Assembly: GCA_963849325.1 (NCBI GenBank)
Contig: CAWKHF010000002.1
Location: 384,001-448,000, forward strand
DNA from: an uncultured Planctomycetota bacterium
GTDB lineage: Bacteria > Planctomycetota > Planctomycetia > Gemmatales > Gemmataceae
Reading direction: 5' to 3'
Length of the DNA: 64,000 nt
Made by a program: the position numbers and the translations under genes. The notes under the pieces were generated by a model that saw only the letters and a list, made by a program, of their open reading frames with translations, was not told the origin of the DNA and did not search any database. Below are positions 3,005 through 64,000 of the stretch, piece after piece (position 1 is the stretch's first letter; the number at the start of each line of letters is the position of its first letter).

Positions 3005-3059
3005 CGAGCCGCGACCGTGAGGGAGTGGGATTCCCCCGCTCTCTCACGGTCGAGGCACC
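3005..3059. repeat. REP-like palindrome family A, degenerate copy 2
   Basis: cgagccgcgaccgtgagggagtggga...cccgctctctcacggtcgaggc. Confidence 0.75.
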
Positions 3060-11388: not shown

Positions 11389-11524
11389 AATCCGAAATCC
11401 GAAATCCGAAATCCGAAAGAAATCCCAAACCCCAATACCCAAACCCAAAACCCTCAGCGTCTCGGTTTCGGGATTTCGGTTTCTTCGGATTTCGGATTTC
11501 TTTCGGATTTCGGATTTCGGATTT

Positions 11525-11529
<5 letters not shown>
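11387..11529. repeat. Inverted heptamer-repeat element (AAATCCG)n ... (CGGATTT)n between convergent genes
   Basis: Tandem aaatccg units at 11387-11415 mirrored by cggattt units at about 11470-11529. Confidence 0.85.
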
Positions 11530-12399
<870 letters not shown>

Positions 12400-12461
12400 G
12401 AGGGTCAACTCTCATGTCCGATTCGTATTCGCGAGCGGCTCGGCGAGTCGCCGCGAAACTG

Positions 12462-45014: not shown

Positions 45015-45237
45015 CTCGCGTATCGACCGACGCACCGTCCGTTTCCTGCCACGAGGTGAGGCGCCTCCACTCACCTGGGCGCACGCGCACGGCCGTCCTC
45101 TTCGGGTTCCGTCCGCCATCCATCGCAAGCGTCCCTTCGCTCGCGTCCTGGAGTGTCCCTCGGCGAGCCGGGGCCACGTTGCCCCTTGTAGCCTGCCGAG
45201 TCGGATACGTCCAGAGCAGCCCTTGCCCAATTGTATC

Positions 45238-46047
45238 CTATTCGACCAGCAAGCGCCGCAGAGATTCCAGACCGAGTTCCGCCATCTGCGACGTTTTCAC
45301 CTGCCACAGCGTCGGGTTGAACAATTCCAGCGACACCCAACCCTCGTAGCCGATGGCGCGCAGTTGCTCGAGGATCGGCCGAAGGCGGAAGTCGCCCTCG
45401 CCCGGCAGAATGCGGTCGGCGTCGGTGGCCAACTGCGCGGCACACCGAGGACGTCGGACAGTTGCACGAAGGCGAGGTTGGCCGGCGACAGCAGACCGAG
45501 ATCGTCGAATTTACTTGGGCCGGTGTAGTAATGGAAAACGTCGAGGTTGACGCCGACGTTCGGCTCGCCGCACTGATCGACCAGGGCCACGGCCGTATCG
45601 AGGCTGGCGCAGAACGAGGCGGAACCGCGAAACTCCAGGGCGAGCCGAACGTCGAAGGCGGAGGCCCAGCTGCGCCGCCTGTGTCAGCGACACGACGGCC
45701 CGCTCCAGGCCCATCGCATCGACCTGGTCCACGAAATCGGCGGCGATCAAGAGGATCGGGATGCCGAAGCTCTGACACAGATCGAGCCGACGTTTGAAGT
45801 GATCGTAATGGGCCTGGCGCTGCTCTCCCTGCGACAGCAGCAGTCCGCCCTGGTAGGCGGCGGCGGCCAGCGTCATCTGGCGGTCTTCGAGCAGCTTGCG
45901 GGTATCGGCGACGGAGTGCTTTTCCAGGTGCGACTCCAGCTTGGTCAGCCACACCTCCAGGGCGTGACAGCCGCCGTCGGCGTAGCCGTTGACGTCCTCG
46001 GCGAAGGTGCTCGATAGCGTGGTGGCCTCGCTGATGCACGGTCTCAT
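45238..46047 (-). CDS. Sugar phosphate isomerase/epimerase (xylose-isomerase-like TIM barrel), frameshifted
   Basis: LALEF, NVGVNLDVFHYY, FVQLSD, DRILPGEG, GYEGWVSLELFN. Confidence 0.85.
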
Positions 46048-46420: not shown

Positions 46421-48808
46421 ATGCCGTCGCCAGCCACTATCGACGAATTCCTGGAGTCTGGTGCGCAAAAGCGGGGTCGTCGATGACACCCGACTCGCAG
46501 CGTATCTGGACAAGGTGCGCGCCGCCGGGGTACTTCCCGCCGATCCGCCGCGGTTGGCCGGCCTGCTGGTGCGCGACGGTTGGCTGACGCACTTCCAGGC
46601 GGAGCAGTTCCTGCAAGGCAAATGGCGTCGCTTCACCATCGGCAAATACAAGGTGCTCGAACGCCTCGGTGCCGGCGGCATGGGGCAACGTTTACTTGTG
46701 CGAACACAAGTTGATGCGTCGCCGCGTGGCCGTCAAGGTGCTGCCGACGGCCAAGGCCGACGATGCCTCGTCGCTGGAACGATTCTATCGCGAGGCCCGC
46801 GCCGTCGCCGCCCTGGATCACCCCAACATCGTCCGCGCCTACGACATCGACCAGGACGACAAATTGCACTTCCTGGTCATGGAGCACGTGGACGGCGCCA
46901 GCCTGCAGGAGATCGTCAAGAAGACCGGCCCGATGGACGTGCTACGGGCCTGTCACTACATTCGTCAAGCCGCCCTGGGCTTGCAGCACGCGCATGAGAC
47001 TGCCGGGATCGTCCACCGCGACATCAAACCAGGCAACATCCTGGTGGACCGCAACGGTATCGTCAAAGTCCTCGACATGGGACTGGCGCTTCTTCCATGA
47101 CGAGGACGACGTCCTGACGAAGAAATACGAGGAAAATGTCCTGGGGACGGCCGATTACCTGGCCCCGGAGCAAGCGCTGGACAGTCATTCGGTAGACATT
47201 CGGGCGGACATTTACAGTCTCGGAGCGACGTTTTATTTCTGTCTGACGGGGCGGACGCCGTTCGCGGAAGGGACGGTGGCGCAGAAACTCATCTGGCACC
47301 AGACGCGGCAGCCCAAGCCCTTGCGGCAGCTGCGGCCGGAAGTGCCGGAAGAGGTGGCGGCCCTGCTCGACAAGATGATGGCGAAGGACGCGGCGGCGGC
47401 GTTTCCCGACGCCGGCGGCGGTGGCCGACGCGCTGGCGGCGTGGACGCAGACGCCGATCCCTCCGCCTCCCGAGAACGAGATGCCGCAGTTCAGCCTGGC
47501 CGCGATGGGTAGTAGCGCGGCCGAAACCACCCTCGCCGCGGGGCCGCGGACGCCCGGAAGCAGCGGCGAGTTGTCGCCGACGCCGCGAAAGCTGTGGCAG
47601 GTTTCTTCGCGGACCACGCCTCCGCCATCCAGTCCTCCTCCCCAATCGAATCCGCCCGCGTCAGCCCCGCCGCAAGACGAATCCACCTCCGTCGCTCGAC
47701 CTTGCCGCCGCGGACACCCAGTCCGGCCGTGACGCCGGCATCGGGTACACGTGCTCCGGTCCCTGCTCCCGTGACACCGCCGATCCGCGCCGCCGTCTCC
47801 GCTCCGGTGCCGGTGAGCCGTGCGCTCGCCGCCAATGGCGCCCCGCAAGCGGCTTCGGCCCCGGTGATGCCTGCGCCGGTGACGGAGACGGCGCAGCCCG
47901 AGGAAGCGATTTCCTGGGGAGCGCTGGTTGCGGAGAATGGGGCGACTTCGCTCCCGAGCGATCCACCCCATCGAGCCGCGCGCAAAGGGCCGGTTTCCTC
48001 GACCCTCCGTGTCGGAGGTCTGCCGCCGGCACCCGCTCAGAATTACGGATTGGCCTGGATCGTCGGCATCGCCTCCGGCATCGTCCTGGTTCTTGTCGTC
48101 CTCGGCGGCATCCTCGCCTGGGCCTTGGGCAAAAAAACGGAGACAGGGGAAGCGGACAGGACCGGACCCCTCGTCCTGTTCGTCAACCGCCTCGGTACCA
48201 ACGATTCCTTCTCTTCCATCGCTGCCGCCGTGGCGAAGGTCCGTGGCCGGGGCAAACACCCGGCACACATCGTCGTCCAGGAGGATCTGGCCGAAAGCGG
48301 CGTCCTGGTTGACCTTCCCAACCTGAGTATCGAAGCGGAAGCCGGTAAGGCCATTCACTGGAAGCCGTCGTCGAAGTCGGGAGCCTCGAGCCTGCTGACG
48401 GTTTACAAGGCGGAAGGGTTCCACCTGAAAGGCTTCACGCTCGACGGCGACAACCGCATCGATAAGCTGGTCTACCTCGGACATCACTGTCCCGGCGTCA
48501 GACTGGAAGACCTTACCTTGCAGGGGTTCAAGAAGTACGGCATCCAGATCAGCAGTTGCGAGGGGGGTCCCAGTCCCGAAAAGCACGTCGTACTCCAGCG
48601 ATTGACGTTCGTAACAGATCGCCAAGCCCAGACCGATCTTTTTTTCAGCATTGAGGATTTCCACAAAGACGCCATCCCCACGAACAAATATTTCATCGTC
48701 CGGGACTGCACGTTTGAGGGTCCTGGGACGAAAGTGAAAACACCCGATCGCACCACTCTCGATCACATCGAGTTCCCTCCCGGCATTCAGCCGGTGCAAG
48801 GGCCGTGA
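46421..48808 (+). CDS. Membrane Ser/Thr protein kinase with Pro-rich linker and C-terminal extracytoplasmic domain, frameshifted
   Basis: LGAGGMG, VAVKVL, HRDIKPGN, KVLDMG, GTADYLAPE, DIYSLG; TM WIVGIASGIVLVLVVLGGILAWAL. Confidence 0.88.
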
Positions 48809-49845: not shown

Positions 49846-50890
49846 ATGGCCGGTCCTCGTCCGCTGGATACGGAGAGCCTGGAAGCGATTTTGCAGCGCC
49901 TCCCCCATCTGACGATCGGGGTCGTGGGCGATCTATTTCTCGATCGCTATCTCGATCTGGATGCTGCCTTGACCGAGCCGTCCCTGGAGACGGGACGGGA
50001 CGCCTATCAGGTCGTGAGCGTTCGCTCCCGTCCCGGCGCCGCCGGGACGGTGATCAACAACCTCGTCGCCCTGGGCGTCGGCCGAATTTGTCCGATCGCG
50101 GTCCTCGGCGACGACGGCGAGGGCTACGAGCTACGGCAAGCGCTCGACCGGCAAGCGGCCATCGATCCGAACGGTCTCATCCTGGCCCCGGATCGCCGCA
50201 CGCCGACTTACACCAAGCCGATGCTGCACGAGAAGGGATCGCCGCCTTGCGAACTGAACCGGCTCGACATCAAGAACCGCCGGCCGATGTCGTCGTCCCT
50301 CGAAGCGCAAATCGAGAAGAAACTGGCGGACGCCTGGCCGCAACTGGATGGCCTGGTAGCGCTCGATCAGGTGAGCGAGGCGGACTGCGGCGTCATCACG
50401 GCGCGCGTGCGCGGACGGCTCGCGGACCTGGCCGCGCGGGAGCCGGACAAGTTCGTCCTGGCGGACAGTCGAGAACGGATCGGCTTGTTTCGTGGCTTGT
50501 GTCTGAAACCGAATCGTCCGGAAGCCCTACGCGCGGCGGGTTGCCCGGCCGAGGGAGGAGACGCGATCCTGGATCGCGCCGCCTCCCAGCTGGCGCGGCA
50601 GTCGGGTCGGGACGTATTCTGCACGGATGGAGCGCGTGGCATCTTGATCGCCTCGCCGGATGGCATCTCGAACGCGCATCCCCGCCTATCCCGTCCGCGG
50701 CCCCATCGACATTGTTGGCGCCGGCGACAGCACGAGCGCCGCCCTCGTCGCCGCCAGGGCGAGCGGGGCCATCGCCGAGATGGCCACCGCCTTCGGCAAC
50801 TTGGTGGCGTCGATCACTATCCGGCAGCTGGGCACGACGGGCACGGCCACGCCAGCGCAGGTTCGGGAACGCTGGCGGGAAGTGCATTGA
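49846..50890 (+). CDS. PfkB-family carbohydrate kinase (HldE/RfaE domain-I-like), frameshift near 50670
   Basis: VVGDLFLDRY, PGAAGTVINNL, LKPNRPE, DIVGAGDS. Confidence 0.85.
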
Positions 50891-50898
50891 CACGCTAG

Positions 50899-50946
50899 CA
50901 GCCCGCAGCGCGAGCAAGGCTCGCCCACTGGCGGCGCTGCGGGCTG
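50899..50946. repeat. Palindrome/REP-like hairpin between convergent genes
   Basis: cagcccgcagcgc...gcgctgcgggctg. Confidence 0.7.
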
Positions 50947-50956
50947 GATCGTCGCC

Positions 50957-51670
50957 TCACGCGGCGGAGCAGGCGGCCGCCGCCTTCTTCGCCCAGCGCT
51001 CGCTACAGGCATTGACCAAACCGCGGAACAATTGAATGTCCAGGCCGGAGGCGGTGGCGGAAGCGGGGTGCCACTGTACGCCGAGAGCGAACCAGTCGCC
51101 GTCCGCCTCGATGGCCTCGACCACGCCGTCCAGGGCTTGCGCACACATGCGGAAGCCGCGGGACACGCGCTGCACGGCGCGGCGGTGTTCACTGTTGACC
51201 ACCACTTCGCCCTCGCCATACAGGCCGGCCAGCATCGTATCGGGCAGGACGTTGATGGCGTGGCGCAGACCGCGCTCGGGCGGATGGCGATGCTGCAACG
51301 CCTCGGGCTGATCGCGTGGCAAATCGAGATAGACGGTGCCGCCGTGAGCCGTGTTGAGGACGTGCAGACCGTGATCGATCCCCAGCAGCGGGAAGCGCCG
51401 GTTGTTGCACCACAGGCACAACTCTTCGGATTCCGCCGTGGGACGCCGCCCGTCGACGTCGTGGCCGGAAAGGACGACGCCGTGCAGGCCGTCGAAGACC
51501 TCGTCCCAGGAACGGTCGCCGACTTCCGTCACCAGGACCGGCTCGGCTTCCGCAGCCGTGAGGCAGGCGGCGATGCCGGCCGGCCATAGTCCGCAGCCGT
51601 GCCGCTCGTTGCCGATGACGTTGTCCTGGCCGTAGATCCCGATGCGAATAGAGGGAGCGCGACTCGACAT
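50957..51670 (-). CDS. Peptidase C26/PuuD-like glutamine amidotransferase homolog lacking the catalytic Cys
   Basis: LHGVVLSG, PLLGIDHGLHVLNTAHGGT, VNSEHRRAV, DGVVEAIE, GVQWHP. Confidence 0.82.
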   Translation of the reverse strand: MSSRAPSIRIGIYGQDNVIGNERHGCGLWPAGIAACLTAAEAEPVLVTEVGDRSWDEVFDGLHGVVLSGHDVDGRRPTAESEELCLWCNNRRFPLLGIDHGLHVLNTAHGGTVYLDLPRDQPEALQHRHPPERGLRHAINVLPDTMLAGLYGEGEVVVNSEHRRAVQRVSRGFRMCAQALDGVVEAIEADGDWFALGVQWHPASATASGLDIQLFRGLVNACSERWAKKAAAACSAA

Positions 51671-51902
51671 GGAGGACTCCTTTCCTCGATACGGAGTGAA
51701 TGCGGTGAAGCCGTTGTTCCTCGGCTCTGTCGAGAAGAGATTGTAACCGAAATGGCGGCGATGACCAGCGGAAAATGGAAAAAAAAGACACGGGAGTGCC
51801 GTAGCGGTTTTGGACAGAAATAGACACAATTCATCTCGGCAACTGCTTTTTCTTTTCGCGTAGCCGTTGATCGAGACGGCGTTCCCGGAAGGAGACAAGA
51901 TC

Positions 51903-52169
51903 ATGAACCGAATGGTGGTGAAAGCGCGGGTGAGCAGTGACGGCAGTCTGCGCCTGGATCTTCCCTTGGGGATGGAAGAGGCGGACAAGGAGGTGCAGGT
52001 GACGGTGGAGCCGGTGCCGCCTGCCGGAAAACAGCGAACGATGAGCGCATCCGATCTTCTTCATTCCGGCTTGGTCGGAATGTGGGCCGACCGCGCGGAC
52101 ATCGGCGACAGCAAGGAATTCGCCCGCCGTCTGCGGGTGCAGGCGCAGAACCGGAGACGTGACCCATGA
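51903..52169 (+). CDS. Antitoxin-like small protein (88 aa)
   Basis: GGAG RBS; AbrB-like N-terminus (ARVSSDGSLRLDLP...EVQVTVEP) and GMWADRADIGDSKEFARRLR tail; ATGA-coupled to a PIN-like start. Confidence 0.7.
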   Translation: MNRMVVKARVSSDGSLRLDLPLGMEEADKEVQVTVEPVPPAGKQRTMSASDLLHSGLVGMWADRADIGDSKEFARRLRVQAQNRRRDP

Positions 52170-52195
52170 TCCTGCTCGACACGAACGTTGCCGAT
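52166..52195 (+). pseudogene. PIN/VapC toxin stub
   Basis: MILLDTNV is a canonical PIN start; similarity ends after about 8 codons. Confidence 0.6.
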
Positions 52196-52219
52196 CTCAC
52201 GAAGACCCTGGAAAGAGAC

Positions 52220-52250
52220 GGGCCGCGTCTCGAAAGGAGAAACGCGGCCC
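52220..52250. terminator. GC-rich hairpin between convergent genes
   Basis: gggccgcgt...acgcggccc stem; no clear U-tract. Confidence 0.45.
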
Positions 52251-52285
52251 GAAAGAGGTTTCGCAGGCGTTCGGAAAGCAGTGTC

Positions 52286-53295
52286 TCAGCCGAGCAGCAA
52301 GCTCGGCTCCCAGCCGACGCGCTCGGCGGAGGCCCGCAGCTTTTCGAGGGCGCGGTTCTGGATCTGCCGCACGCGCTCCTTGCTGATGCGCAGCAGGTGG
52401 CCGATCTGCCGCAGGCTGTGCGTGCCGTTGCCGGTCAGCCCGAAGCGCAGATCGAGGACCTTCCGCTCGCGCGGCCGCAGGTTTTCCATGAGGAAGTGCA
52501 GGGCTTCCTGGCGCTCGGAGTTCTGCCGCAGCGTGGTGCTCTCGTTGTCCGGCATCGCCTCGGTGAGCTTGAAATCGCTGTCGTCGTCGAGGACGGCATT
52601 GAGCGAGACCGGCGTGCGCGTGGCGGTTTGCAGATGGGTCAGATGTTCGAGGCTGCTGCCGGTGCGCGAGGCCAACTCCTGCGGGCTGGGCAGGTGCTTG
52701 CCGCCGTGGGCCAGCGCCTCGGACTCCTGCTGGAGCAGGCCGAGTTCCTGCAAGTGGTGCGGCGACAGGCTGACCAGGTGGCTCTGGCGGGCGACGGCGA
52801 TTTGCAGCGTCTGGCGAATCCACCAGGTCGCGTAGGTCGCCAGGCGGGTGCCGTGGCTGACGTCGAAGCGGTCGATGGCCTGCATCAGGCCGCAGACGGC
52901 TTCCTGCAGCAGGTCGGCGTAGCTGAGGGCGTGGTGGCGGAAGCGCTTGGCGACGTGGGCGGCCAGGCGGATGTTGGCCGAGGCCAGGCGATGCTTGAAG
53001 TGGATGTAGCGGTCGTGCAGGCGGCGAACCGCGACGACGGCTGCGGGCGTCGTTGTCGCAGTGGTCGCGGATGAACTGAGCCATGGGCCACGGCTCCAGG
53101 GCGGGGCGGTGCTGGCGGAGGCGGGAGAAATTGCGGATCAGCACCCGAACCAACTCGCTCTTGGTTTCCCAGAAGTCGGCGAGCAACTCGCGCTCTTCCT
53201 CGGGAGTCAGGAGGTCGGAAGAGAAAATCGTGGTCGGCGCCACAGGAGCGCTTCTCTTCGGTAACCGGCTGGCGCTTCCGACGTCGCGTCTTCAT
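52286..53295 (-). CDS. Sigma-70 family factor (RpoD/SigA-like regions 1.2-4, no region 1.1), frameshifted
   Basis: LLTPEEERE, ANIRLAAHVAKRF, DLLQEA, AIDRFD...RLATYATWWIRQ, SLRQIGHLLRISKERVRQIQNRALEKLR. Confidence 0.88.
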
Positions 53296-53783
53296 GGCCG
53301 TCTTTCCCTACATCTAGAGGCTATTCAACTCTCGTCCCAACAACAATTTGCCGCCGTTCGGCCTTGAGCGACGACAACAAACAACCCGCGTGCCCCGACA
53401 CGGATTAGCCAGCAACGGTTGCCCGCGCTGGCAACAGGTGACGGGGCCGGCTTGCGGTGGCACGGTCTTCTCTGTCAGTGCGGCGAGACAAAAACACGCC
53501 GCTCGACCGAACCGCGTCGATCCCTGGACTTCAGCAACTCATCCGTGAGAGATCGCGGCTCAGCTCGGGTCGGCGTCCGGGGCATACGGTCGCGGACTCT
53601 GCTGCCAGGGAGGAAAGGCCACCTTACCAGGTTCGCAATCCTTTGGAACCGTATGCGGACGAAAGGGTTCTCCCTGTTCTTCCTAACGTGCGGGCTTATT
53701 GTAAAGTGCCGCCGCGCCCATATCAAGATTTATTATCGAAAAGTCATCAAGGTCTTTTCGGAAGGCATTGCCCGATGCTATCG

Positions 53784-53833
53784 GAGCCGCGACCGTAAGG
53801 GAGTGGATCCCCGCTCCCTCGCGGTCGCGGCTC
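53784..53833. repeat. REP-like palindrome family A, copy 4
   Basis: gagccgcgaccgtaagggag...ctccctcgcggtcgcggctc, preceded by gatgctatc as in copy 3. Confidence 0.85.
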
Positions 53834-54022
53834 GGTTCTTTCTCCCGTACTCTCCACTCGCAACTTTCGTACCCCTCGCGGAAACGGAGTCTTTGGACTT
53901 CCCGACGGCGTGAGCTAAAATAGCTCGTCCGATCGTTCGTCCTCTCGCTGCCGACGCTTGAGTAGCTGTCCGATCGGGGTTCGGTGGGCCGAGCGGCGAG
54001 AGTAGGCGCCGGGAGTGCGCGG

Positions 54023-55051
54023 GTGAAGGCACCGAAATGTTCGCTGTTGCTGGTCGATGACGAGCCGTACATCCTTCCGAGCCTGGCTGCCTTGCTGGAG
54101 CCGGAATTCGAGGTGGTCACGGCGGACGGCGTCGAGTCCGCCCGCGACGTCCTCGCCCGGCAAGCATTCGATGTCATCCTGACTGACCAGAAGATGCCGC
54201 GGCAGACCGGCATTCAACTGCTCGAATGGGTCCGCGAACATCATCCGCGCACCGTCCGGCTGCTGATGACCGGCTACGCCGACCTGGAAGACGCCGTCGA
54301 TGCGATCAACCGTGGCCAGGTTTACCACTACTTGCTCAAACCCTGGCGGACGGAGGAGCTTCTGCAAGTCCTCCGCAACGCGGCCGAGAAGTGCATGCTC
54401 GAACGCAGCCGCGACGAACTTCTCGAACAATTGCGGCAGCTCAACAGCGAGTTGGAACGGCGCGTGGCCGAACGGACGCGGGCGCTGGAAGAAGCCAATC
54501 ATCTGCTCGAACAGCGGGCCCAGGAGTTGGAACGGCTGGCCTTGACCGACCCGCTGACGGGCCTGTTCAACCGCCGGGCGATGGAGGAGCTGGCTCGCTT
54601 CGAGCTGAAGCGACACGCGCGCTATCCCAGTCCGCTGACGATCGGACTGATCGACATCGATCGCTTCAAGGAGATCAATACACGCTTTTTGTTGCCGGGC
54701 GGCGACGAGGCCTTGAGGGGTCTGGTGCGCATCCTGACGAGTTCGCTCCGCGAGGTTGACTCGGTCGGCCGCATCGGCGGCGACGAGTTTCTGATCATCG
54801 CACCGGCGACGAATGAGGAAGGGGCTACCCGACTGGCCGAGCGTATTCGAGCCACGGTGGCCGCGACAACCATCCCTTACCAGGACCAATCGATCCGGAT
54901 CTCGGTCAGTGTCAGTTTCGCCGTGGCCGAGGTTGGCGCGGCGAGCGATTTCGATTTGATGTACCGGCAGGCGGCCAGCGCCATCAAGGACGCCAAGGAC
55001 AAAGGCCGGAATTGCTTCGCCGTCTGCCGCATTCCCGCGCCGCCCTCCTGA
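54023..55051 (+). CDS. Response regulator-diguanylate cyclase (REC, coiled coil, GGDEF)
   Basis: LLVDDE, LTDQKMP, LKPW; TDPLTGLFNRR, DIDRFK, REVD I-site, GGDEF. Confidence 0.92.
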   Translation: MKAPKCSLLLVDDEPYILPSLAALLEPEFEVVTADGVESARDVLARQAFDVILTDQKMPRQTGIQLLEWVREHHPRTVRLLMTGYADLEDAVDAINRGQVYHYLLKPWRTEELLQVLRNAAEKCMLERSRDELLEQLRQLNSELERRVAERTRALEEANHLLEQRAQELERLALTDPLTGLFNRRAMEELARFELKRHARYPSPLTIGLIDIDRFKEINTRFLLPGGDEALRGLVRILTSSLREVDSVGRIGGDEFLIIAPATNEEGATRLAERIRATVAATTIPYQDQSIRISVSVSFAVAEVGAASDFDLMYRQAASAIKDAKDKGRNCFAVCRIPAPPS

Positions 55052-55068
55052 CCGGCCGTTTACTTCGG

Positions 55069-55824
55069 CTATCTGTCCAGAAGGGAGAGGACCGAGCTGA
55101 GGGCCAGCAGTTGCTTGGCCGCCCCGCGCGTCTGTCCGGCCAAACGCCACAACTCCGCCAGGAGCGCGGGATGCCGGAACACGGCCCCCGCCAATCGCAC
55201 GGGCGAAACGCGGCCCCGGCGCAGCAGGTCCACCAGATGAGGTGACAATGACGTGTTCAGGTCATCCGAGATGACGCGCACGCAGGCGAAGGGAATGCCG
55301 TGTTCGTGGCACAGGTGGGCGACGACGGCGGTTTCCATGTCCACGGCGAGCGCCTGATACTCCCATCCGAGCCGCTGCTTCCACTGTGGATCGCCGATCA
55401 ATTCTGACGCGGTCAACAAGCGGCCGCTGCTGAACGAGGGGCCGTCAGCGAAAGCCGCTGCCGGAGCAACAGGCCAGCAATTCCCGCGTTGATCGAGGAT
55501 TTCCGTCGCCAGGATGAGGTCGCCGACACGCTGTTCCGGCCGTAACGCTCCCGAGAAGCCAGCAGACAAAACCAGGCGAGGACGATACGGAACGTCGCCG
55601 AAGCGTGGCGTCGCGAGACACCAGCGCAGGGCGTTCTCCATCGCCCGTGCCCCGAGTCCGGTCTCCAGCATCAACACCGTCTGGGATGGGGGACCGCGAA
55701 ACTCGGCGCGGCAGGGCGCGCCGGAGAAAGATTGCTGATAGGGGTAGGCGCGCCGGAAGTACATCGACTCCCGGCGCAAGGCGAAGACGAGACAAGGATC
55801 GGTAATCGCGCTGTCCGCGGTCAT
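55069..55824 (-). CDS. hpnG: Hopanoid-associated nucleoside phosphorylase (HpnG-like)
   Basis: ETGLG, SAGFSGAL, AVDMETA, CVRVISD; TGATG-coupled to hpnH. Confidence 0.75.
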   Translation of the reverse strand: MTADSAITDPCLVFALRRESMYFRRAYPYQQSFSGAPCRAEFRGPPSQTVLMLETGLGARAMENALRWCLATPRFGDVPYRPRLVLSAGFSGALRPEQRVGDLILATEILDQRGNCWPVAPAAAFADGPSFSSGRLLTASELIGDPQWKQRLGWEYQALAVDMETAVVAHLCHEHGIPFACVRVISDDLNTSLSPHLVDLLRRGRVSPVRLAGAVFRHPALLAELWRLAGQTRGAAKQLLALSSVLSLLDR

Positions 55825-56846
55825 CAGGTCAGTTGCCACATCAGCATTTTGAGGCTGTCGGCCAACTTCGCGTTGACGCCGAGAGCGGCGGAGGTCTCGA
55901 AGCCGCAGTGCATCATGCAGTGCTCGCAGCGCGGATCCTTGCCGTGGCCGTACTTCTCCCAGTTGGTGTTCTCCATCAGGTCGGCGAAGCTGTCGTGGTG
56001 CTCGTCGGTGATGAGATAGCACGGCCCCTTCCAGCCCTTGACGTTCCGCGTCGGATTGCCCCAGGCCGTGCAGCTCAGCTCGCGTTTGCCGCTGAGAAAC
56101 TCCAGGTAGATCGGCGAAGACATCATGCGGTACTTGACGAGCAGCTTTTCGGCCTCCTGGAACTTGGCGCGGATGTCGTCGCGCGTCAGGAAAATCTCGG
56201 CCGCGCCCTTGGGGTTGGTCTTCTGGACCGCCGTGTAGCCGTAGGCCGGCGACAGCATGAAGCCATCGACGCTTCAGCGACTTCAGGTAGGCGAACAGCT
56301 GGTCGATCTCGTCGAGGTTGGTTTCCTTGTAGATGGTCGTGTTGGTGCAGACCAGGAAGCCGGCCTTCTTGGCGGCGACGATGCCCTCGACGGCGGCCTG
56401 GAAAACGCCCGGACGCTCGACGGCCAGGTCGTGCGTCTGCTCCAGGCCGTCGAGGTGGACGTTGAAGAAGAAGCGGCTGGTCGGCCGAAACTCGTGCAGC
56501 CGCTTGCGGATGAACATGCCGTTGGTGCAGAGGTAAATGTGCTTGCGCCGGCGGAGGATGCCGCGCACCAGGGCGCCGATCTCCGGGTAGATCATCGGCT
56601 CGCCGCCGCAGATGCTGACGATGGGCGCGCCGGCCTCATCGACCGCTGCAAGGCACTCGCGCGACGGTCAGTTTTTCCTTGATCGTCTGCGAGTATTCGC
56701 GGATGCGGCCGCAGCCGGTGCAGGTCAGGTTGCAGGCGTGCAGCGGCTCGAGCATCAGCACCAGGGGATAGCGCTTCGCGCCGCGACAGCTTCTTGCGGG
56801 CCATGTAGCCCACCATGGTCGTCGTCAGACTCAGCGGGAAACGCAT
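55824..56846 (-). CDS. hpnH: Adenosyl-hopene transferase, radical SAM; frameshifted
   Basis: MLEPLHACNLTCTGCGRI (CxxxCxxC), GGEP, YLCTNG, CTAWGNPTRN, PCYL, DPRCEHCMMHCGFE. Confidence 0.9.
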
Positions 56847-56870
56847 GGACAAAACCTCCGAACGGATCGC

Positions 56871-56977
56871 AACCGTCAAGACGCCAAGCAAAGACGGAGG
56901 ATCAAGTGTAGTACGAGGGGGATGAGAGATTCCGTAGCTCTCTTTCTTCTCTTGGCGTCCTTGGCGTCTTGGCGGTT
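56871..56977. repeat. Imperfect inverted repeat (AACCGCCAAGACGCCAAG type) between shc and hpnH
   Basis: aaccgtcaagacgccaag ... cttggcgtccttggcgtcttggcggtt. Confidence 0.7.
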
Positions 56978-58927
56978 CGATCATAGCGAGCCAGGGCCAT
57001 GAGCGGGAAGTACAGGCGGTAAAGGTGATATTTCAGGTAGAAGACCTTGGGGAAGCCGGTGCCGGTGAACGGTCTTCGCGCCAGTTGCCGTCCTCGTCCT
57101 GCGTGGTCAGTAGGTAATCGATGCCACCGCGGACCGCGTCGCTGTCGTGCCTCGCCGGCGGCCATCAGGGCGAGCAGCGCCCAGGCGGTCTGCGACGCCG
57201 TCGGCGTCCCCTGTGCCGGCCAGCGTGGGGTCGTCGTAGCTGCGGCAGGTTTCGCCCCAGCCGCCGCCGGCTGCTGCACTTGCTCGCAGCCAGGCCACGG
57301 CGCGGCGCACCATCGGGTCTTGCATGTCGAAGCCGATGCTGCGCAGGCCGCACAGCACCTGCCAGGTGCCGTAGATGTAATTGACGCCCCAGCGGCCGAT
57401 CCAGCAGCCGGACTCCTCCTGCGTTTTCCGCAGAAAGACGAGGGCGCGGCGCACCTGCGGATGATCGCATGCCGAAGCCGTAATGGCCCAGCGCTTCCAG
57501 GACGCGGGCGGTGATGTCGGGACAGCTCGGGTCGAGCATGGCGTTGTGGTCGGCGAACGGCACGTGCGTCAGGACTTCGCGGTTGATGTCGCGGTCGAAG
57601 GCCGCCCAGCCGCCGTCGCGGTTCTGCATGCCCAACAGCCAGCGCAGGCCGCGCTCGGCGGCCGGGCCGGCCGTCGGTCGTGTTCGCCTGCCCCGTCTTC
57701 GCCAGCGCCATCAGCACCATCGCCGTGTCGTCGGTGTCGGGGTAGAAGGCGTTGCGGTACTCGAAGAACCAGCCGCCCGGCTCCAGTGCCGGGTTGGTCA
57801 GGCTCCAGTCGCCCTGCTGACGCACTTCGCTTGGCAAGCAGCCAGCGGGCGGCCTGCTGGATGGCGGGGTGCTCGCGCGGACAGCCCAGCATCGGCCAGG
57901 GCGTTGAGGCTCAGGGCCGTGTCCCACACCGGCGAGAAGCACGGCTGCAAGCGCAGCGTGTCGTCTTCCTCGATCATCAGGTCTTCGAGCTGCTTCAGGG
58001 CCCAGCGCATCTCGGGAGCATCGTCGGGGACGCCCAGGCAGCGCAGGGCGACGACGGTGTAGATCATCGGCGGGAAGATGGCGCCGAGGCCGTCGCTGTC
58101 GTCGAGGTGCTCGCGCATCCAGGCGGCGGCTCGGCGGAGGGCGAGGCGACGAATCGGCCCCAGCCACGGCTCGACCTTCTTGTAGAGGCCGTCGACGCCG
58201 AGGAAGAAGTTGGTCCAGCTCAGCCAGCGCCGCGCGGGCTGCGCCGGCCAGAGCGAGCGTCTGCGGCGGCCGCAGGAACAGTTCGCGATGCCTTTTTCGG
58301 CGGGCAGTTGCCGCACCGGCTTGCACGCCGAGAAGATGCTGAGCGGCACGACGATGGTGCGCGTCCAGCTCGACATGGCGTAGAGGTTGACGTAGACCCA
58401 GCGCGGCAGCAGCACCATCTCCGGCGGCACCGAGGCGCAGTTGCCGTAGGGGAACTGGCCCAGCAGGGCGAGGTAGAACTTCGTGAAGCTGTTGCAGCCG
58501 GCGGCGCCGCCGAGGGCGCGGATGACCTGCGCGGGCCCGACGCATGTACGGCGCGTCGGGGTCGTGGCCGGTCAGCTTGAGGGCGAAGTAGGCCTTGACC
58601 GAGACGCTCAGGTCGGCCGGGCCGCCGGGGTAGTTGCTCCAGCCGCCCTCCGCCATCTGCTGCCGTAGGACGTAGCGGGCGGCCTTGCGGCAGACCTCCG
58701 CTGTCCTCGCGGCCGAGGAAGGCCATGAGCAGGACGTATTCGGATTCGAGGATGGTGTCGCCCTGCAGCTCGCCGACCCAGTGGCCGTCGTCCTGCTGCT
58801 GGTCCAGCAGGCAGCGGCGAGCGGCGTCGATGCCGCGACGCAGAGGAGAGGAGGGGGCGGAATCGTGGCGGCGTCCGGCATCCGGCCGTCGCGGCATCGG
58901 CCGCGTCTGCGACTGTGAGCCTTTCAC
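56902..58927 (-). CDS. shc: Squalene-hopene cyclase, multiple frameshifts (ends approximate)
   Basis: QQDDGHWVGELQGD, KAYFALKL, SPVWDT, YPDTDDT (DxDD), MQNRDGGWAAFD, WGVNYIYGT, FTGTGFPKVFYLKYHLY. Confidence 0.92.
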
Positions 58928-59092
58928 GGGAATCCTTTCCGCTTCCTTCGACTATTCTCCCTCGACCCGGAGGGTCCGCGTAATGTACCCGCTCGCCGCG
59001 AAACGCCGCAAGATGAACTCGCCGCTCTTGCCGATGCCTGTTCTGGTCCCCACGACGCGCCGGCTGATACAATCGGGGACGGGAGGTCCATC

Positions 59093-59436
59093 GTGAACGC
59101 ATCCGCATCCGCAAGCACATTGACTCGGACACGCCGTATCTGCCGGAACTCCGGCCACTGATCGGCAAGACCGTTGAGATCATCGTTCTCGATGAAACGG
59201 TCGGCCCAGAAGGCAAGCAGTTGGAGACGGAAGAAACCTTCTTTGGTCTGGCCCCGCCGCCGCCGACGCCGGAAGAGCAAACGGCGTACTTGGCGAAGTT
59301 CCGCGCCATGCGCGACAATCCGGCCTATACGAAACTATGGCCTTACCTTGATCTGCTCCTGACGGGGCAACTCGATATCGACGTAGACGAGGTAGTTCAA
59401 GCCCGTGGAATGACCGCCCATGATTCTGACCGATAG
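59093..59436 (+). CDS. Antitoxin-like protein (1-nt frameshift right after the GTG start)
   Basis: GGAGG, GTG AAC GC then IRIRKHIDSDTPYLPELRPLIGKTVEIIVLDE, in frame with ORF 59221..59436; overlaps a PIN-like start. Confidence 0.65.
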
Positions 59437-59449
59437 TTCCATCCTGATC
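59420..59449 (+). pseudogene. PIN/VapC toxin stub
   Basis: MILTDSSILI, then similarity stops. Confidence 0.6.
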
Positions 59450-59450
59450 C

Positions 59451-59546
59451 GTCAGATTGGACGACCAGGACCGGGAAGGGTTTCGTCGTTTCCAAGTTGG
59501 AATTGGGGGACAATGCCAGGAGAACTTCTCCGCGTTCATACGTCAT
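59451..59546 (-). pseudogene. MazF/PemK toxin N-terminal fragment
   Basis: Manual translation MTYERGEVLLALSPNSNLETTKPFPVLVVQSD matches the PemK pattern RGDVxLxxFP..K.RPxLVVQxD. Confidence 0.7.
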
Positions 59547-59766
59547 TGTAAACATCCATTTCCGGTCGATCCCAGTCCTCCGCAGCCGCTCCCCAGCGCG
59601 ACCGTAGTTCCGCAGTCTCCGCCTCGTCGATGCCGTGCGCCCGCAAGTCGATGCTTCCTTCGATGGGAAGGAACGTCACCACGACACGCGCCTCTTTCAC
59701 GTCCGGCGGCGTTTCCAACAGTTCGATTTTGCCGTGCCGATAAATGCCCTCAACCGCTTTCAGCAT
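59536..59766 (-). CDS. Antitoxin-like protein (76 aa)
   Basis: GGAGG RBS; MLKAVEGIYRHGKIELLETP...VVVTFL and acidic tail AEDWDRPEMDVYND; overlaps the MazF-like start. Confidence 0.75.
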   Translation of the reverse strand: MLKAVEGIYRHGKIELLETPPDVKEARVVVTFLPIEGSIDLRAHGIDEAETAELRSRWGAAAEDWDRPEMDVYNDV

Positions 59767-60079
59767 GTACGTTTCCTCCAGCAAAGTTTGAGACCCCTTG
59801 TGCGGGATCGTTTGCGTTCTACTGATCGGTGCGCAAAGGACGCTGGGCTGGAATTGTGGACCTAAGATGCGCATTTCGCCGCGATGGCCGCCCTATTGTC
59901 CGGCTTGAGGCTGTTTCACGAGCCGCCGTGAGGAAGGCTTCGAGATACGAGGGCAAGGGAAGGCGCTAAGAACCTTTTTGCATAGCAAAAGTATTAAAAT
60001 GGTTCCTGATATCTTTTTTCCCCCAAATGCCGCGATCTCTGCCAGTCACAACCGCGATTGGTCATCGGACATGCATCGC

Positions 60080-63000
60080 TTACCCCTTCTTTCTCCCCTT
60101 CTTCGAGCCGATCTCGTTGCCGAAGAGGTCCGTGGGGATGGCGTTGCCGAACAGGTCTGCAGGCCGATCCTTCACCGACTTCTCTGGGGGCGACAGCGCT
60201 TCCGCCTTCTCCTCGTCGGTCAGCTTCTGGGATTCTGGAGCCGGTTTCATCGGCCGACCAAGCACCTGATAGGCCCGCGCCGTCGCCATCCGGCCACGCC
60301 GCGTCCGCACGATGAATTGCTCCCGCAGCAGGTACGGCTCGATCTCGTCGCTGAGGGTATCAACCGGCAGGCTCATGCTGGCCGCCAGGGATTCGACACC
60401 GACCGGCCCGCCGCCGTGTACGCCGACCAGTATTTCCAGATAACGGCGGTCCTGTTTATCCAGTCCATCGCGATCGACCTCGGCCATGTCCAGGGCGGCG
60501 CGGGCGATGTCGAAGGTGATGCGGCCATCGTCCTCGCTGGCGGCAAAGCTCCGCGCCCACCACAGCCGGGCGTTGGCGAGGCGCGGCGTGCCGCGACTGC
60601 GCCGCGCCAGCTCAAGGGCCGCATCGTCGGTGATCGAGGTTTGCAGCTTGCAGGCATTGATGCGCACGATCTCGGCCAACTCCTCAACGGTGTAATACTC
60701 AAGGTGCTCGTGCATCTTGAAGCGATCGCGCAGCGGTCCAGACATCATTCCGCTGCGGGTGGTCGCCCCGATCAGCGTGAACGGTTTCAGACGCAGGTTG
60801 ATTGTCCGCGCATTCATGCCTTCGCCGAGTACAATATCGAAGCGGAAATCCTTCATTGCTGGATAGATCAACTCCTCGACAAGACGCGGCATCCGGTGGA
60901 TTTCGTCGATGAACAGCACCGAGCCTTCCTCGACGTTGGTGAGAAAGGTCAACAGATCGGCCGGCTTAGTTAGCGCCGAGCCGCTGGTCATTTGGATCGA
61001 CGTGCCCAGTTCGTTGGCCAGTGCGTTAGCGAAGGTGGTCTTGCCCATTCCCGGCGGGCCGTCGAACAAGATGTGCGATAGCGGCTCCTTGAGTTTTTTA
61101 CAGGCGTTCAGGACGATGCTCAGGCGCTGGACGATCGCTTGTTGGCCGATGATTTCGCGCAGCCATCGCGGCCGCAGCGACGCATCGCGCCGCCGCGATT
61201 CCTCGTCGCCGCCAGATTGCACGATGGCTTGAGGTGCCGTGTAGGAGCCTCGCACGTCTTCCACCTGTTTGAGAGATTCAACCCAGGAAGGGATAGTGCC
61301 GATCGAGTACTTCCGAATTATCGACTGAGCTTCCTGTTTAAGAGATTCAACCACGGAAGGGATGGGGGCGGCAGGGGCCGGTAGCACTGCTGGGGCGGGG
61401 CTGGGAGCCGCAGCGGGGAACAAGCCCTTGACGGAGTTGGCCGGCACCCATTCCAACATGCCGTACTGCCAGACAAAATCGGTCGGTTTCAACTGTCCGG
61501 AAGCCGCCAGTTGCTTGAGTTGAGTGGCCGTGATGGGCGCGATGGCTTGCTGGCCGTTGAGCGTGTAATGCCATTCATTCGCCGCCTTGGCGGAGACGGG
61601 GGGAAGGACGGCCGAATCGCCGAGGCTCTTGCCGGAAGGACTTCTATAAGGGGTTGCTAGATAATGCCAAGGGGGCACGACGGCCGAATCGCCGAGAGTC
61701 TTGCCGGCGGGGGGGAACAATCCTTTGATGGCGCCAGCGGGTACCCATTCGACCATGCCTTCCTGCCAAACGAGGTCGGTCGGCTTCAGCTGCCCGGAGG
61801 CCGCCAATTGCTTGAGTTGGGTGGCGCTGATGGGCGAAGCGGCGGGTTGGCCGTGGATCGTATAATGCCATTCATTCCGCATCAGGTCGGGCAGTGCAAG
61901 GCCGGAGGGAATGGCCTGATCGACCTGGAGGCCGGGTGCTGCTTGTATTTCGCTAATCCGCCGTGCCAACTCAGCCGCGTCTGTCGGGCGTTTTTCCGCT
62001 CGTGATGCCAGGCAGGATGCCAGTAAAGCGAGAAAGTCTTCACTCACTCCGCGTGAACGTACTTCATCCTGCCAATCAGCCGGCAAAGACACACTATTCA
62101 TGTCGCCGGTGAGGAGTTGATACCAGATGACACCGAGGGCGTGGACATCGTCGCGCGGGTCTGGCGGCTCCCCGTCCTTTTGTTGCGGTGAGGCGTAAAA
62201 GGGCGTGTGGGCACCTCGCAACACCGTCGGAAGCAAGTTACAGCCCACACGACTACGTTTCGCCGCCGCCAGCGCCTGACCAGCTACGACACCGCCGATG
62301 CCGAAGTCAGCTACGCGGGGAGCGTACCCTCCCTTATCGGTTCGGTTCAGGAGGATGTTCGCTGGCTTGAGATCACGATGCACGATGGGCGGATTAAGCT
62401 TGTGTGCATACGCTACAATCTCCGCTAGTCTGTATACCAATTTTGTAGCTTTTTCGACCGTGCATGCTGAAGGCGAGCGGTGCCATTGGGCGATCACTTT
62501 AGTCAAATCACCCCCAGCCACGTACTCGTACTCCAGACAGGGCGTCTCGGCGTTGAGATAGGTGTGCAAGAGTTTCACGATGCCCAGATGTTTCCCTTCG
62601 CACATGACACGGCCCAGCAAGGCTGCCTCGTTGCGGAGCACTTTGGCCGCCGTCGCATCGGTGCAGAACTTGAGAGCTGCTACCGTGTGGGGAAGGTGGG
62701 GGTTGCATGCCATCCAGACTTCCCCGAAGCCACCTACGCCGAGCAGTTCCTGTAACTCCCAATCTCCGATACCGGGCGGACGGTCTCCGGGCCGAAACCG
62801 GGGCATCTTACTGGGAAGGAGGAGGAGTAGGTCTTCGGCGCGTTGCAAGGAAAGTTCAGAAGAGAGCGATCGTCCACTCGAATCTCCGCGGCAGCGCTGG
62901 GACTGACGGATGGCGTTCGGTACGAGAGCTACATAGTCCGCTACCGCTTGGCAGACAGTCTCCAGATGTCCAGCGCCTTCCACCTGCGCAGCCAATTTGG

Positions 63001-63217
63001 CGTAGCCCTTTGTTTCGGCGACCGACAGTCGGGCTACCGCTTGCAGCTCCGCTCGCAATTGATCTTCTGGCCGGCCTCTGTTCCACCACTTCCAAACGTC
63101 TTTCGCCATGTCTGGCAAGACATCGACAGCAAAATCCCCTAATACGCCGCCTCCGGCGATGTTCAAGGCGGCTCTGGCAATGAACCGCAAGAGGGCGGGC
63201 GGCGTGTGCATGGCCAT
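60080..63217 (-). CDS. Fusion protein: N-terminal helical domain, Ser/Thr kinase, two GYF_2 (DUF4339)-like domains, full-length RuvB-like ATPase
   Basis: Kinase LGVGGFGEVW, ALKF, HRDLKPAN, DFG, YASPQQ, DVHALG; two WHY..GQ...QLKQLAASGQLKPTD.VW..GM.EWVPA units; RuvB SLRP, GPPGMGKTT, FIDEIHR, GATTR, PLRDRF, RGTPR, IEPYLL. Confidence 0.9.
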   Translation of the reverse strand: MAMHTPPALLRFIARAALNIAGGGVLGDFAVDVLPDMAKDVWKWWNRGRPEDQLRAELQAVARLSVAETKGYAKLAAQVEGAGHLETVCQAVADYVALVPNAIRQSQRCRGDSSGRSLSSELSLQRAEDLLLLLPSKMPRFRPGDRPPGIGDWELQELLGVGGFGEVWMACNPHLPHTVAALKFCTDATAAKVLRNEAALLGRVMCEGKHLGIVKLLHTYLNAETPCLEYEYVAGGDLTKVIAQWHRSPSACTVEKATKLVYRLAEIVAYAHKLNPPIVHRDLKPANILLNRTDKGGYAPRVADFGIGGVVAGQALAAAKRSRVGCNLLPTVLRGAHTPFYASPQQKDGEPPDPRDDVHALGVIWYQLLTGDMNSVSLPADWQDEVRSRGVSEDFLALLASCLASRAEKRPTDAAELARRISEIQAAPGLQVDQAIPSGLALPDLMRNEWHYTIHGQPAASPISATQLKQLAASGQLKPTDLVWQEGMVEWVPAGAIKGLFPPAGKTLGDSAVVPPWHYLATPYRSPSGKSLGDSAVLPPVSAKAANEWHYTLNGQQAIAPITATQLKQLAASGQLKPTDFVWQYGMLEWVPANSVKGLFPAAAPSPAPAVLPAPAAPIPSVVESLKQEAQSIIRKYSIGTIPSWVESLKQVEDVRGSYTAPQAIVQSGGDEESRRRDASLRPRWLREIIGQQAIVQRLSIVLNACKKLKEPLSHILFDGPPGMGKTTFANALANELGTSIQMTSGSALTKPADLLTFLTNVEEGSVLFIDEIHRMPRLVEELIYPAMKDFRFDIVLGEGMNARTINLRLKPFTLIGATTRSGMMSGPLRDRFKMHEHLEYYTVEELAEIVRINACKLQTSITDDAALELARRSRGTPRLANARLWWARSFAASEDDGRITFDIARAALDMAEVDRDGLDKQDRRYLEILVGVHGGGPVGVESLAASMSLPVDTLSDEIEPYLLREQFIVRTRRGRMATARAYQVLGRPMKPAPESQKLTDEEKAEALSPPEKSVKDRPADLFGNAIPTDLFGNEIGSKKGRKKG

Positions 63218-63368
63218 TCCACTCCGGCGAATTCAGGCGAATCGAGGTGTGGGTTATTGTCTGCCGAGCGGAGGTCCGTTTCAACCAAAAATATCTCGCC
63301 AAGGTTTTGGGTGCCACGCCTCCATTCCTCCATTTGGCTTGCTCTTCGATTGTGTCAGCAAAGACAAC

Positions 63369-64000
63369 TCAATCCTTGTTGGCGCCGCGGGTTGGTGAAT
63401 CGAGCCATCCCATCGTGCGAAACCACGCCACGGTCTCGGCGAGCGTCTCGGCCACCGGACGCGGCCGCAGTCCGAGTTCGGCGAGGCTGCGCCGCGCGTC
63501 GAAGTGCATGAGGCGGCGCGTCAGCTTGACTCCGGTGACGGTCGCGGCCGGCGCCCTATGGGTAATGACATCAGCGACGAATTCGCTGGCATACGCTGCC
63601 GCCAGGGCGACAGGGTAGGGCACGCGCCAGCGTGGCTCCGGCAGGCCGGTCAAGCGAGCGAGCATCTGAAACACGGTGAGGATCGACAGGTTTTCGTGTC
63701 CCAACAAATAGCGCCGGCCGGGGCGACCGCGCTCCATGGTGCGGACCATGCCCTCGGCCACATCGCGGACGTTGATGAGGTTGAGGTTGGCGTCGAGGTA
63801 TTCGCGGCGTTTGCCCTGGCAGAAATCGAGCATCATCTGCGTCGGCGGCGTCCGGCCGAAGTCGCCGGGACCGACCGGCAACGTCGGGTTGACCACGACC
63901 ACCGGAGCGCCGGCGCGGCCCAGGCGCAAGGCGTGCCGTTCGGCCAGGTATTTCGACCGACAGTAAGGTCCGATGACATCCTCGTAAGTGATGGGCTGCT
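63369..64000 (-). CDS. hpnA: Hopanoid-associated NAD-dependent epimerase/dehydratase (HpnA-like), 5'-truncated by window edge
   Basis: GPYCRSKYLAE (YxxxK), VVVNPTLPVGPGD...TPP, NVRDVAEG, GRRYLLG; same strand as shc. Confidence 0.8.
   Translation of the reverse strand, partial: QPITYEDVIGPYCRSKYLAERHALRLGRAGAPVVVVNPTLPVGPGDFGRTPPTQMMLDFCQGKRREYLDANLNLINVRDVAEGMVRTMERGRPGRRYLLGHENLSILTVFQMLARLTGLPEPRWRVPYPVALAAAYASEFVADVITHRAPAATVTGVKLTRRLMHFDARRSLAELGLRPRPVAETLAETVAWFRTMGWLDSPTRGANKD

Follow-up and report, generated by a model that had tools for sequence, protein, structure and literature searches.

RuvB is almost always a stand-alone subunit of the RuvAB complex and is among the best-understood DNA motors. 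How, then, did a complete RuvB come to form the C-terminal third of a serine/threonine kinase in a soil-type Gemmataceae planctomycete, and what might such a protein do? The gene that raises this question lies on the minus strand of a 64,000-nucleotide (nt) stretch of contig CAWKHF010000002.1, which was analyzed as a whole and is called the window below. From N- to C-terminus, its product consists of a helical N-terminal domain (N-domain), a Hanks-type kinase, two successive GYF_2 domains, a complete RuvB, and a tail of 45 residues. We are highly confident that the fusion is genuine, a lineage-restricted gene of a planctomycete of the Gemmataceae. The best explanation of the gene as a whole, in which we have moderate confidence, is that an accessory, neofunctionalized ruvB was fused behind GYF domains and a kinase, and that assembly of the RuvB ring would control or target the kinase. 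Each of the parts comes from a known family, and the combination of kinase, GYF, and RuvB is undescribed in the literature searched.

Gene layout and relatives of the fusion

The gene and its parts occupy the following positions of the window.

60080..63217, (-), whole fusion open reading frame (ORF), 1045 amino acids (aa) plus stop
62813..63217, (-), all-helical N-domain, residues 1-135, conserved across the Gemmataceae kinase family
61976..62758, (-), Hanks-type Ser/Thr kinase, residues 154-414, from Pfam Pkinase (90.1 bits)
61718..61870, (-), GYF_2 domain 1, residues 450-500, from Pfam GYF_2; repeat copy at 61707-61877, family D1
61406..61579, (-), GYF_2 domain 2, residues 547-604, from Pfam GYF_2; repeat copy at 61410-61580
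61264..61370, (-), linker IPSxVESLKQ in two copies, owing to an in-frame duplication of 69 nt, repeat family D3
61238..61251, (-), relic of the translation start of a stand-alone ruvB, with GAGG at 61248-61251 and the former ATG now ACG (Thr660, 61238-61240)
60218..61240, (-), complete RuvB, residues 660-1000, from NCBIfam equivalogs and an end-to-end alignment with PDB 9dx3_A
60083..60217, (-), C-terminal tail of 45 residues, with the DLFGN motif twice and the basic end GSKKGRKKG, from a comparison of C-termini
63256..63284, (-), weak match to a sigma-70-like promoter, about 40 nt ahead of the gene start, not above chance

The ORF is a single frame, open over 1045 codons plus the stop. Its true start is probably the second ATG, at 63211, which would yield a protein of 1043 aa; the database copy of the same protein (P0002), which starts with MHTPP, and the family consensus MxTPxALL both begin there. 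A scan for promoters and terminators gave nothing above chance, the promoter region holding 2 sites against 1.3 expected from shuffles. All domains score above their Pfam cut-offs, with Pkinase at residues 154-414 (cut-off 31.7 bits), GYF_2 in two stretches (93.9 bits; cut-off 25.8), RuvB_N at 681-839 (209.5 bits), AAA_lid_4 at 842-915, and the RuvB_C winged helix at 918-986. The first-pass annotation of this DNA, made from the letters and translations, had delimited the same ORF and the same domains, and its coordinates agree with the profile matches, which convert to 61976-62758 for the kinase, 61406-61870 for the GYF domains, and 60260-61177 for RuvB.

The RuvB part is recognized by both NCBIfam equivalog models, NF000868 and TIGR00635, at 418.9 bits (cut-off 282) and 377.5 bits (cut-off 299.05), respectively, over residues 672-989, and it aligns end to end and without gaps with the solved RuvB 9dx3_A (315 bits). 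Its motifs include Walker A GPPGMGKT (720-727, with K726), Walker B DEIH (770-773, with D770 and E771) inside VLFIDEIHR (767-775), LIGATTR (815-821), PLRDRF with the arginine (Arg) finger R832, RGTPR (875-879), and the C-domain arginines R971, R974, and R976. According to the published mutants, replacement of the Arg finger (EcR174) or of the DNA contacts (Pa R314, R317, and R319) abolishes branch migration (PMC10071043). Substitutions in the motifs include Met for the usual Leu in Walker A (L724M) and a Glu-to-Lys change in the AMEDF motif (E789K), the latter common to P0363. Judged from its sequence, the RuvB part keeps the elements for ATP binding, ring formation, and DNA grip; the catalytic motifs of the kinase and of RuvB are all intact, and both enzymes look active. 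The stand-alone Gemmataceae RuvBs all end in QPGLFD, and the tail takes the place of this ending in the window protein and in one further RuvB, P0242, only. The LF motif conserved at the terminus may serve as a docking peptide.

P0363 itself is a divergent RuvB of 417 aa, 65% identical, with an unannotated N-terminal extension of 98 residues, Ser at the Arg-finger position, and DEID in place of DEIH. Degenerate RuvB paralogs may be recurrent in this group.

The N-domain and the kinase form a module that is common among Gemmataceae kinases. In an alignment of 69 proteins of the family, the N-domain has near-invariant residues that include G22, G24, G27, W45, Y95, P100, R104, R108, and D112. Its AlphaFold model consists of six helices with a predicted local distance difference test score (pLDDT) of 81.8. 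It has no Pfam match and no usable ESM Atlas match, and none of the 76 matches listed in the PDB fold search reached E ≤ 0.001; the helical domain ahead of the kinase is an undescribed domain. The kinase contains the Gly-rich loop (160-168), K183, HRD (280-282), N287, and DFG (304-306), of which the Gly-rich loop, K183, D282, N287, and D304 are invariant columns of the same alignment. For residues 1-440, the model reaches a pLDDT of 89.4, and its top PDB matches are PknB, PknA, and PknI, with TM-scores (normalized to the target) of 0.67-0.79.

Residues 1 to about 430 are the sole matched part in 118 of the 120 best matches listed, which carry other C-terminal domains behind the shared kinase module, namely FGE-sulfatase, TPR, WD40, beta-helix, and SEL1. 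One of them, P0003, is 81% identical in the kinase module, and the other 117 kinase-only matches listed are 46-62% identical. As reported for this family, Gemmataceae kinases are expanded and modular, with 98-140 kinases in each genome and 307 architectures in the dataset as a whole (PMC11032199). The window protein has the same N-domain and Hanks kinase as these multidomain kinases (P0003, P0005-P0121), together with the variable block C-terminal to the kinase described for them (PMC11032199). In contrast to the TPR, WD40, FGE-sulfatase, beta-helix, or SEL1 domains of the other proteins, this block consists here of two GYF domains and a DNA motor ATPase.

The two GYF units are a tandem duplication of 171 nt at a spacing of 297 nt, with 78% identity at the DNA level and 77% at the protein level. 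The region 61264-61877 (minus strand) contains three local in-frame duplications (171 nt at spacing 297, 37 nt at spacing 72, and 38 nt at spacing 69), all with spacings that are multiples of three. This suggests repeated slippage or recombination of the GYF and linker region in which the frame was kept.

Relatives that carry the fusion are few. In a scan of 1.84 billion cluster representatives, exactly one of the best 150 matches listed, P0360, has kinase, GYF, and RuvB matches together. It is a metagenome fragment of 467 aa from a different source, encoded on a contig of 5.5 kb and 85% identical to the window protein. It shares the kinase-to-GYF and GYF-to-RuvB junctions, the linker motif VESLKQVED, and the start of RuvB; its single GYF domain aligns with GYF_2 domain 2 of the window protein, and its kinase-GYF linker is longer. 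P0360 is broken as called: its called start lies inside the kinase, and its last 18 residues correspond to the +1 frame of the window RuvB sequence after GPPGM, the frame having been left by one base at Walker A.

The second relative, P0004, is a protein of 621 aa, in which an unassigned N-terminal domain of 110 residues stands in place of the kinase and is followed by two GYF_2 domains, the same VESLKQVED linker, and RuvB. P0004 retains an internal Met at the start of RuvB, has no tail, and carries His in place of the Arg finger (R449H). In the report on P. aeruginosa RuvB, the Ala mutant at the equivalent position had lost branch-migration activity (PMC10071043). The His at this position argues that P0004 is not the working branch-migration motor of its cell, and as motors the members of this family look expendable. 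The GYF-linker-RuvB junction is the same in P0004, P0360, and the window protein, and P0360 shares with the latter also the kinase and the Thr at the former RuvB start.

Among the 120 long RuvB-bearing proteins listed, GYF_2 and RuvB occur together only in the window protein and P0004, and Pkinase and RuvB occur together, besides the window protein, only in P0128. The latter (1165 aa, from a metagenome) has the reverse order of domains, with RuvB at 1-330, a transmembrane/TPR region, and a kinase at 907-1157; it contains no GYF domain, and its RuvB is 46% identical. P0128 is a single observation and may represent two adjacent genes read through. The kinase-GYF-RuvB architecture is thus extremely rare, with two kinase-bearing examples, one of them broken, and two related RuvB forms. 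A literature search found no description of a kinase-RuvB or GYF-RuvB protein, as the first reading had supposed for the kinase-RuvB fusion, and none of the papers retrieved for RuvB with GYF is bacterial. The main text of PMC11032199 mentions neither RuvB nor GYF.

These relatives bear on whether the fusion is real. An assembly chimera or an indel could have joined separate kinase, GYF, and ruvB genes, since many frame breaks are present in the assembly and the repeated GYF units could mislead an assembler. However, the fusion is very probably not an assembly artefact, because both junctions recur in P0360, which is from a different source, and because P0004, encoded on another contig, joins GYF-GYF to RuvB by the same linker. 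In addition, the loss of the RuvB start codon is common to P0360, and the GYF copies, at 78% identity, are not collapsible repeats. We regard an artefact as extremely improbable.

Origin of the RuvB part

The stand-alone ruvB genes used for comparison come from 80 related loci in Gemmataceae or Planctomycetota assemblies, nearly all of them metagenome-assembled genomes (a few have other record labels). The RuvBs of these loci are 65-86% identical to the window RuvB, and identity to the stand-alone RuvBs of related Gemmataceae is 83-90%. In trees of 126 and 72 rows, the window RuvB is nested among stand-alone Gemmataceae RuvBs of 345 aa, which are up to 90% identical to it and whose entire N-terminus it holds. 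No stand-alone RuvB more than 90% identical to it was found in the protein database.

The DNA alignment with six stand-alone ruvB loci reveals the relic of an independent gene start. The Shine-Dalgarno-like element GAGG and its spacing are conserved, all six loci have ATG where the window has ACG, and the homology ends just upstream of GAGG. The residue at the former start Met is Thr in both the window protein and P0360, and Met in P0004. An internal translation start of RuvB appears unlikely, because the ancestral ATG is ACG in the window and the Thr is found also in P0360.

The neighborhood of the gene differs as well. In 70 of the 80 related loci, including the nearest relatives L001-L004, ruvA is located upstream of ruvB on the same strand (within 200 nt in 51 loci, within 201-1000 nt in 16, and further away in 3). 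Of the ten loci without ruvA, 3 or 4 have no upstream sequence, and the other 6 have at least 1.8 kb of it. In the window, tblastn found no RuvA anywhere in the 64 kb, and Pfam gave no match to RuvC or RuvA among the frames scanned, i.e., 59 open frames of 100 aa or more beyond 45 kb and 106 frames of 130 aa or more with third-codon-position G+C content (GC3) above 0.66 before 45 kb. The statement of the first-pass annotation that no ruvA or ruvC is nearby therefore stands. A GYF domain or kinase joined to ruvB was found in none of the 80 loci; apparent N-terminal extensions and GYF matches in L014, L024, and L027 were discarded as alignments that run through a stop codon into ruvA. A tblastx comparison of positions 50001-64000 with the related loci showed RuvB alone to be common, and the flanks are not conserved.

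Most likely, ruvB was cut from a ruvAB operon in the short intergenic spacer and joined in frame behind GYF, its own start being lost later, because the GAGG relic is kept, the homology stops just upstream of it, ATG has become ACG, and ruvA is displaced. The series of events would be as follows. A copy of ruvB, probably an additional one, would have been cut out of the ruvA-ruvB operon just upstream of the ribosome-binding site and joined in frame behind a GYF adaptor module, then behind the promiscuous module of helical N-domain and Hanks kinase. The RuvB start codon would then have been lost, so that RuvB would be produced solely as part of the kinase protein, forming its C-terminal third.

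Codon composition varies along the fusion gene. GC3 climbs from one end to the other (0.63, 0.62, 0.69, 0.77, 0.87). The N-domain and kinase have values of 0.62-0.63, the GYF region 0.69, and RuvB 0.77, as compared with 0.823 ± 0.038 in 18 other genes of the window. The N-terminal two thirds of the gene are more than 5 standard deviations under the other genes. This step points to a different history of the kinase and GYF part, or to gene conversion of the RuvB part.

The RuvB part has evolved under changed constraint. The pairwise ratio of nonsynonymous to synonymous substitution rates (dN/dS) between the window RuvB and stand-alone genes is 0.115-0.163, as compared with 0.053-0.148 among stand-alone pairs. 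In three-point estimates, the branch dN of the window RuvB is 0.055-0.070 versus 0.012-0.030 for L001 and L002, whereas the branch dS overlaps (0.25-0.44 versus 0.19-0.44). By these estimates, the window RuvB is under purifying selection, with a constraint that has changed yet is kept, and a branch dN about three times higher. Across 122 RuvBs, 194 columns are nearly invariant; changes at these columns are most numerous in P0004 (19), the window protein (12), and P0242 (9), the median being 0. P0242 is the sister of the window RuvB in both trees (SH-aLRT, the Shimodaira-Hasegawa-like approximate likelihood ratio test, 98 in one; bootstrap/SH-aLRT 100/99 in the other). It starts at Met and may be unfused.

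In comparison with the canonical RuvB of the RuvAB(C) branch-migration machine, the window RuvB has the same three domains, Walker A and B motifs, Arg finger, and DNA-contacting arginines. It differs in several respects: it is not a stand-alone protein and carries about 660 extra N-terminal residues, its own start is ACG, ruvA does not adjoin it, the 45-residue tail stands in place of the QPGLFD ending, and its nonsynonymous rate is three times higher.

One could suppose that such a gene is a neutral or decaying accident, a functionless and short-lived product of the shuffling of Gemmataceae kinase modules. Its rarity would fit this explanation, since the only other kinase-GYF-RuvB protein among the best 150 matches is frame-broken and P0002, P0004, P0242, and P0360 each form a one-member cluster. 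The occurrence of Gemmataceae kinases in hundreds of architectures, as described in PMC11032199, would fit it too. However, a frame of 3.1 kb has stayed open where many genes of the assembly are broken, all catalytic motifs are intact, dN/dS of RuvB is well below 1, the fusion is kept although the window protein (P0001) and P0360 have diverged by about 15% in protein sequence, and the linker duplications are all in frame. A mere accident is, in our opinion, quite unlikely. The first-pass annotation had made its case depend on homologues of the fusion and on purifying selection; homologues exist in P0360 and P0004, and dN/dS is 0.12-0.16.

Status and possible function of the fusion protein

Is the fused gene an additional ruvB or the only one of its genome? 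We lean, with some reserve, toward an accessory, diverging copy, because the RuvB part stands apart from ruvA, has a threefold higher dN, and has changed at 12 near-invariant positions, because P0004 has lost the Arg finger, and because the GC3 of the gene is mixed. The first-pass annotation had spoken of a captured ruvB copy serving as a sensor, scaffold, or decoy. The captured copy is borne out by the separation from ruvA, the lost start codon, and the faster evolution, whereas the decoy or defence part of the proposal has found no support.

It is possible, although we consider it rather doubtful, that the fusion protein is the sole housekeeping RuvB, still driving branch migration together with RuvA, and that the kinase-GYF part is a regulatory or localizing appendage, e.g., one that phosphorylates RuvB, RuvA, or RecA in cis or nearby. 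The full equivalog scores, the retention of all catalytic and DNA-contacting residues, the dN/dS of 0.12-0.16, and the position among orthologous stand-alone RuvBs all agree with this possibility. The absence from the protein database of a stand-alone RuvB more than 90% identical agrees with it as well, and the loss of the internal start would be sensible if the fusion had replaced the original gene. On the other hand, the gene is separated from ruvA, unlike those of 70 of 80 relatives. Its dN is raised threefold, 12 nearly invariant sites have changed in it, its sister form P0004 is without the Arg finger, and its N-terminal two thirds have a foreign-looking GC3.

Several observations weigh against an accessory fusion gene with a function of its own, as we prefer to read it. 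The source genome is seen here as 64 kb only, and the best match in the genome contigs searched is 86% identical. With its full equivalog score and purifying selection, the RuvB part could be the only RuvB of the cell, and six of the 80 related loci, with at least 1.8 kb of sequence upstream of ruvB, are also without ruvA. The tree alone cannot separate a paralog from the ortholog of a sister species, and an error-prone assembly may inflate the RuvB branch length. A single clade of the window protein, P0242, and P0004 is not in the best tree, although it is not rejected by the approximately unbiased test (p = 0.325). The sole other kinase-GYF-RuvB protein, P0360, is broken, and the gene may be decaying in that population.

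The activation of Hanks kinases typically depends on proximity and trans-autophosphorylation. For an accessory kinase-GYF-RuvB protein, the following mechanism can be proposed. The RuvB part would form ATP-dependent rings on branched or duplex DNA, possibly still via RuvA. Ring assembly would bring up to six kinase domains together, leading to their mutual phosphorylation and then to that of local targets, while the GYF domains would recruit proline-rich partners. In this way, the protein would couple recombination or fork intermediates to Ser/Thr phospho-signaling. Control of the kinase by oligomerization or targeting is a tentative proposal, suggested by the retained features of RuvB and by the precedent of B. 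subtilis YabT. In the published accounts of YabT, a DNA-binding motif is needed for trans-autophosphorylation, and the kinase phosphorylates RecA (PMC3708118, PMC6333020). The likeness lies in the linkage of a Hanks-type kinase with a DNA-binding element and with proteins of recombination; it is one of working logic and not of family membership. As described there, YabT has a short basic juxtamembrane motif and a transmembrane helix, lacks an AAA+ motor, and has no accessory domain in common with the window protein.

A more specific version of this proposal, speculative and of low probability in our estimate, is a checkpoint-type kinase. Here, RuvB rings on Holliday junctions or reversed forks, with or without RuvA, would cluster the kinases, which would become active by trans-autophosphorylation and phosphorylate proteins of recombination, replication, or division brought in by the GYF domains. 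If this were true, an AAA+ branch-migration motor would have been reused as a sensor for phospho-signaling, with a logic like that of the eukaryotic DNA-damage kinases. To our knowledge, kinase-based DNA-damage signaling in bacteria is poorly known beyond cases such as YabT. If RuvB and the kinase are intact and RuvB is not made alone, the gene would be a natural experiment in which motor assembly on DNA is wired to phosphorylation. With the fusion, a core DNA motor seems to have become a domain of a signaling protein, and the gene illustrates how the expanded kinase repertoire of the family draws in even core housekeeping enzymes as accessory domains. Given its rarity, the fusion may represent an evolutionary experiment of local scope and not a system of wide occurrence.

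The kinase-based defence idea, raised in the first-pass annotation, proposes an anti-phage or conflict module. In it, a phage protein or recombination intermediates of a phage would be drawn to RuvB as a bait or decoy, and the kinase would serve as the alarm or effector. In many paralogs, sensor-type repeat domains (TPR, WD40, FGE-sulfatase) accompany the kinase module, and the gene is rare, patchy, and atypical in GC3. There is also domain-level likeness to defence kinases, with PADLOC matches to mad6 (131.8 bits) and to PD-T4-6, MkoA, and PglW. These matches, however, span the generic kinase fold only and not full-length Mad6 of MADS, PglW of BREX, PD-T4-6, or MkoA, and with the defence models of NCBIfam the scores fall far short of the cut-offs (MADS6, 74.9 versus 460; PglW, 52.1 versus 990). 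None of the seven flanking open frames has a PADLOC match. The surroundings are ordinary chromosome, including hopanoid genes, sigma factors, purA, and rho, and no signs of a mobile element or defence island were seen in them. A role in defence thus seems very improbable.

Surroundings of the gene in the window

The rest of the window contains lpxA, purA, uppS, cdsA, phoH, rho, sigma factors, genes of WD40 and HEAT proteins, and a hopanoid cluster. The latter, a frame-broken hopanoid-type cluster at 55072-58951 (minus strand), consists of squalene-hopene cyclase, a split HpnH-like radical-SAM/DUF3463 gene, and a PNP_UDP_1 fragment, with the cyclase (56905-58951) broken up into five or more frame pieces. 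The frame breaks in this cluster could be local assembly error or real gene decay. Other genes split between frames are RimK (11162-12404, minus strand), M32 carboxypeptidase (30833-31789, plus strand), TrkA (41839-43429, minus strand), and a second Ser/Thr kinase (46588-47509, plus strand). Altogether, at least ten frame breaks occur in the 64 kb, and about 20 other recognized genes are intact.

The first-pass annotation had singled out the unbroken fusion ORF among frameshifted neighbors. The breaks themselves are confirmed, as in the cyclase, the radical-SAM/DUF3463 gene, and the second kinase, whereas an intact 3.1 kb is unremarkable, the Poisson estimate for zero breaks over this length being about 0.6. 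Homopolymers were considered as a cause of the frameshifts in the neighbors and rejected, as runs of at least 5 occur at 3.19/kb in the fusion ORF versus 1.47/kb in the broken cyclase.

Two further loci deserve mention. At 43632-45296 (minus strand), an intact protein of 555 aa matches the MATCAP family (microtubule-associated tyrosine carboxypeptidase, PF08014; 408.9 bits), a eukaryote-named family found here in a planctomycete. At 2924-7148 (plus strand), two very large ORFs with WD40 repeats, 820 and 681 aa long, share about 280 nt in different frames and may represent either a single frame-broken gene or two tandem paralogs.

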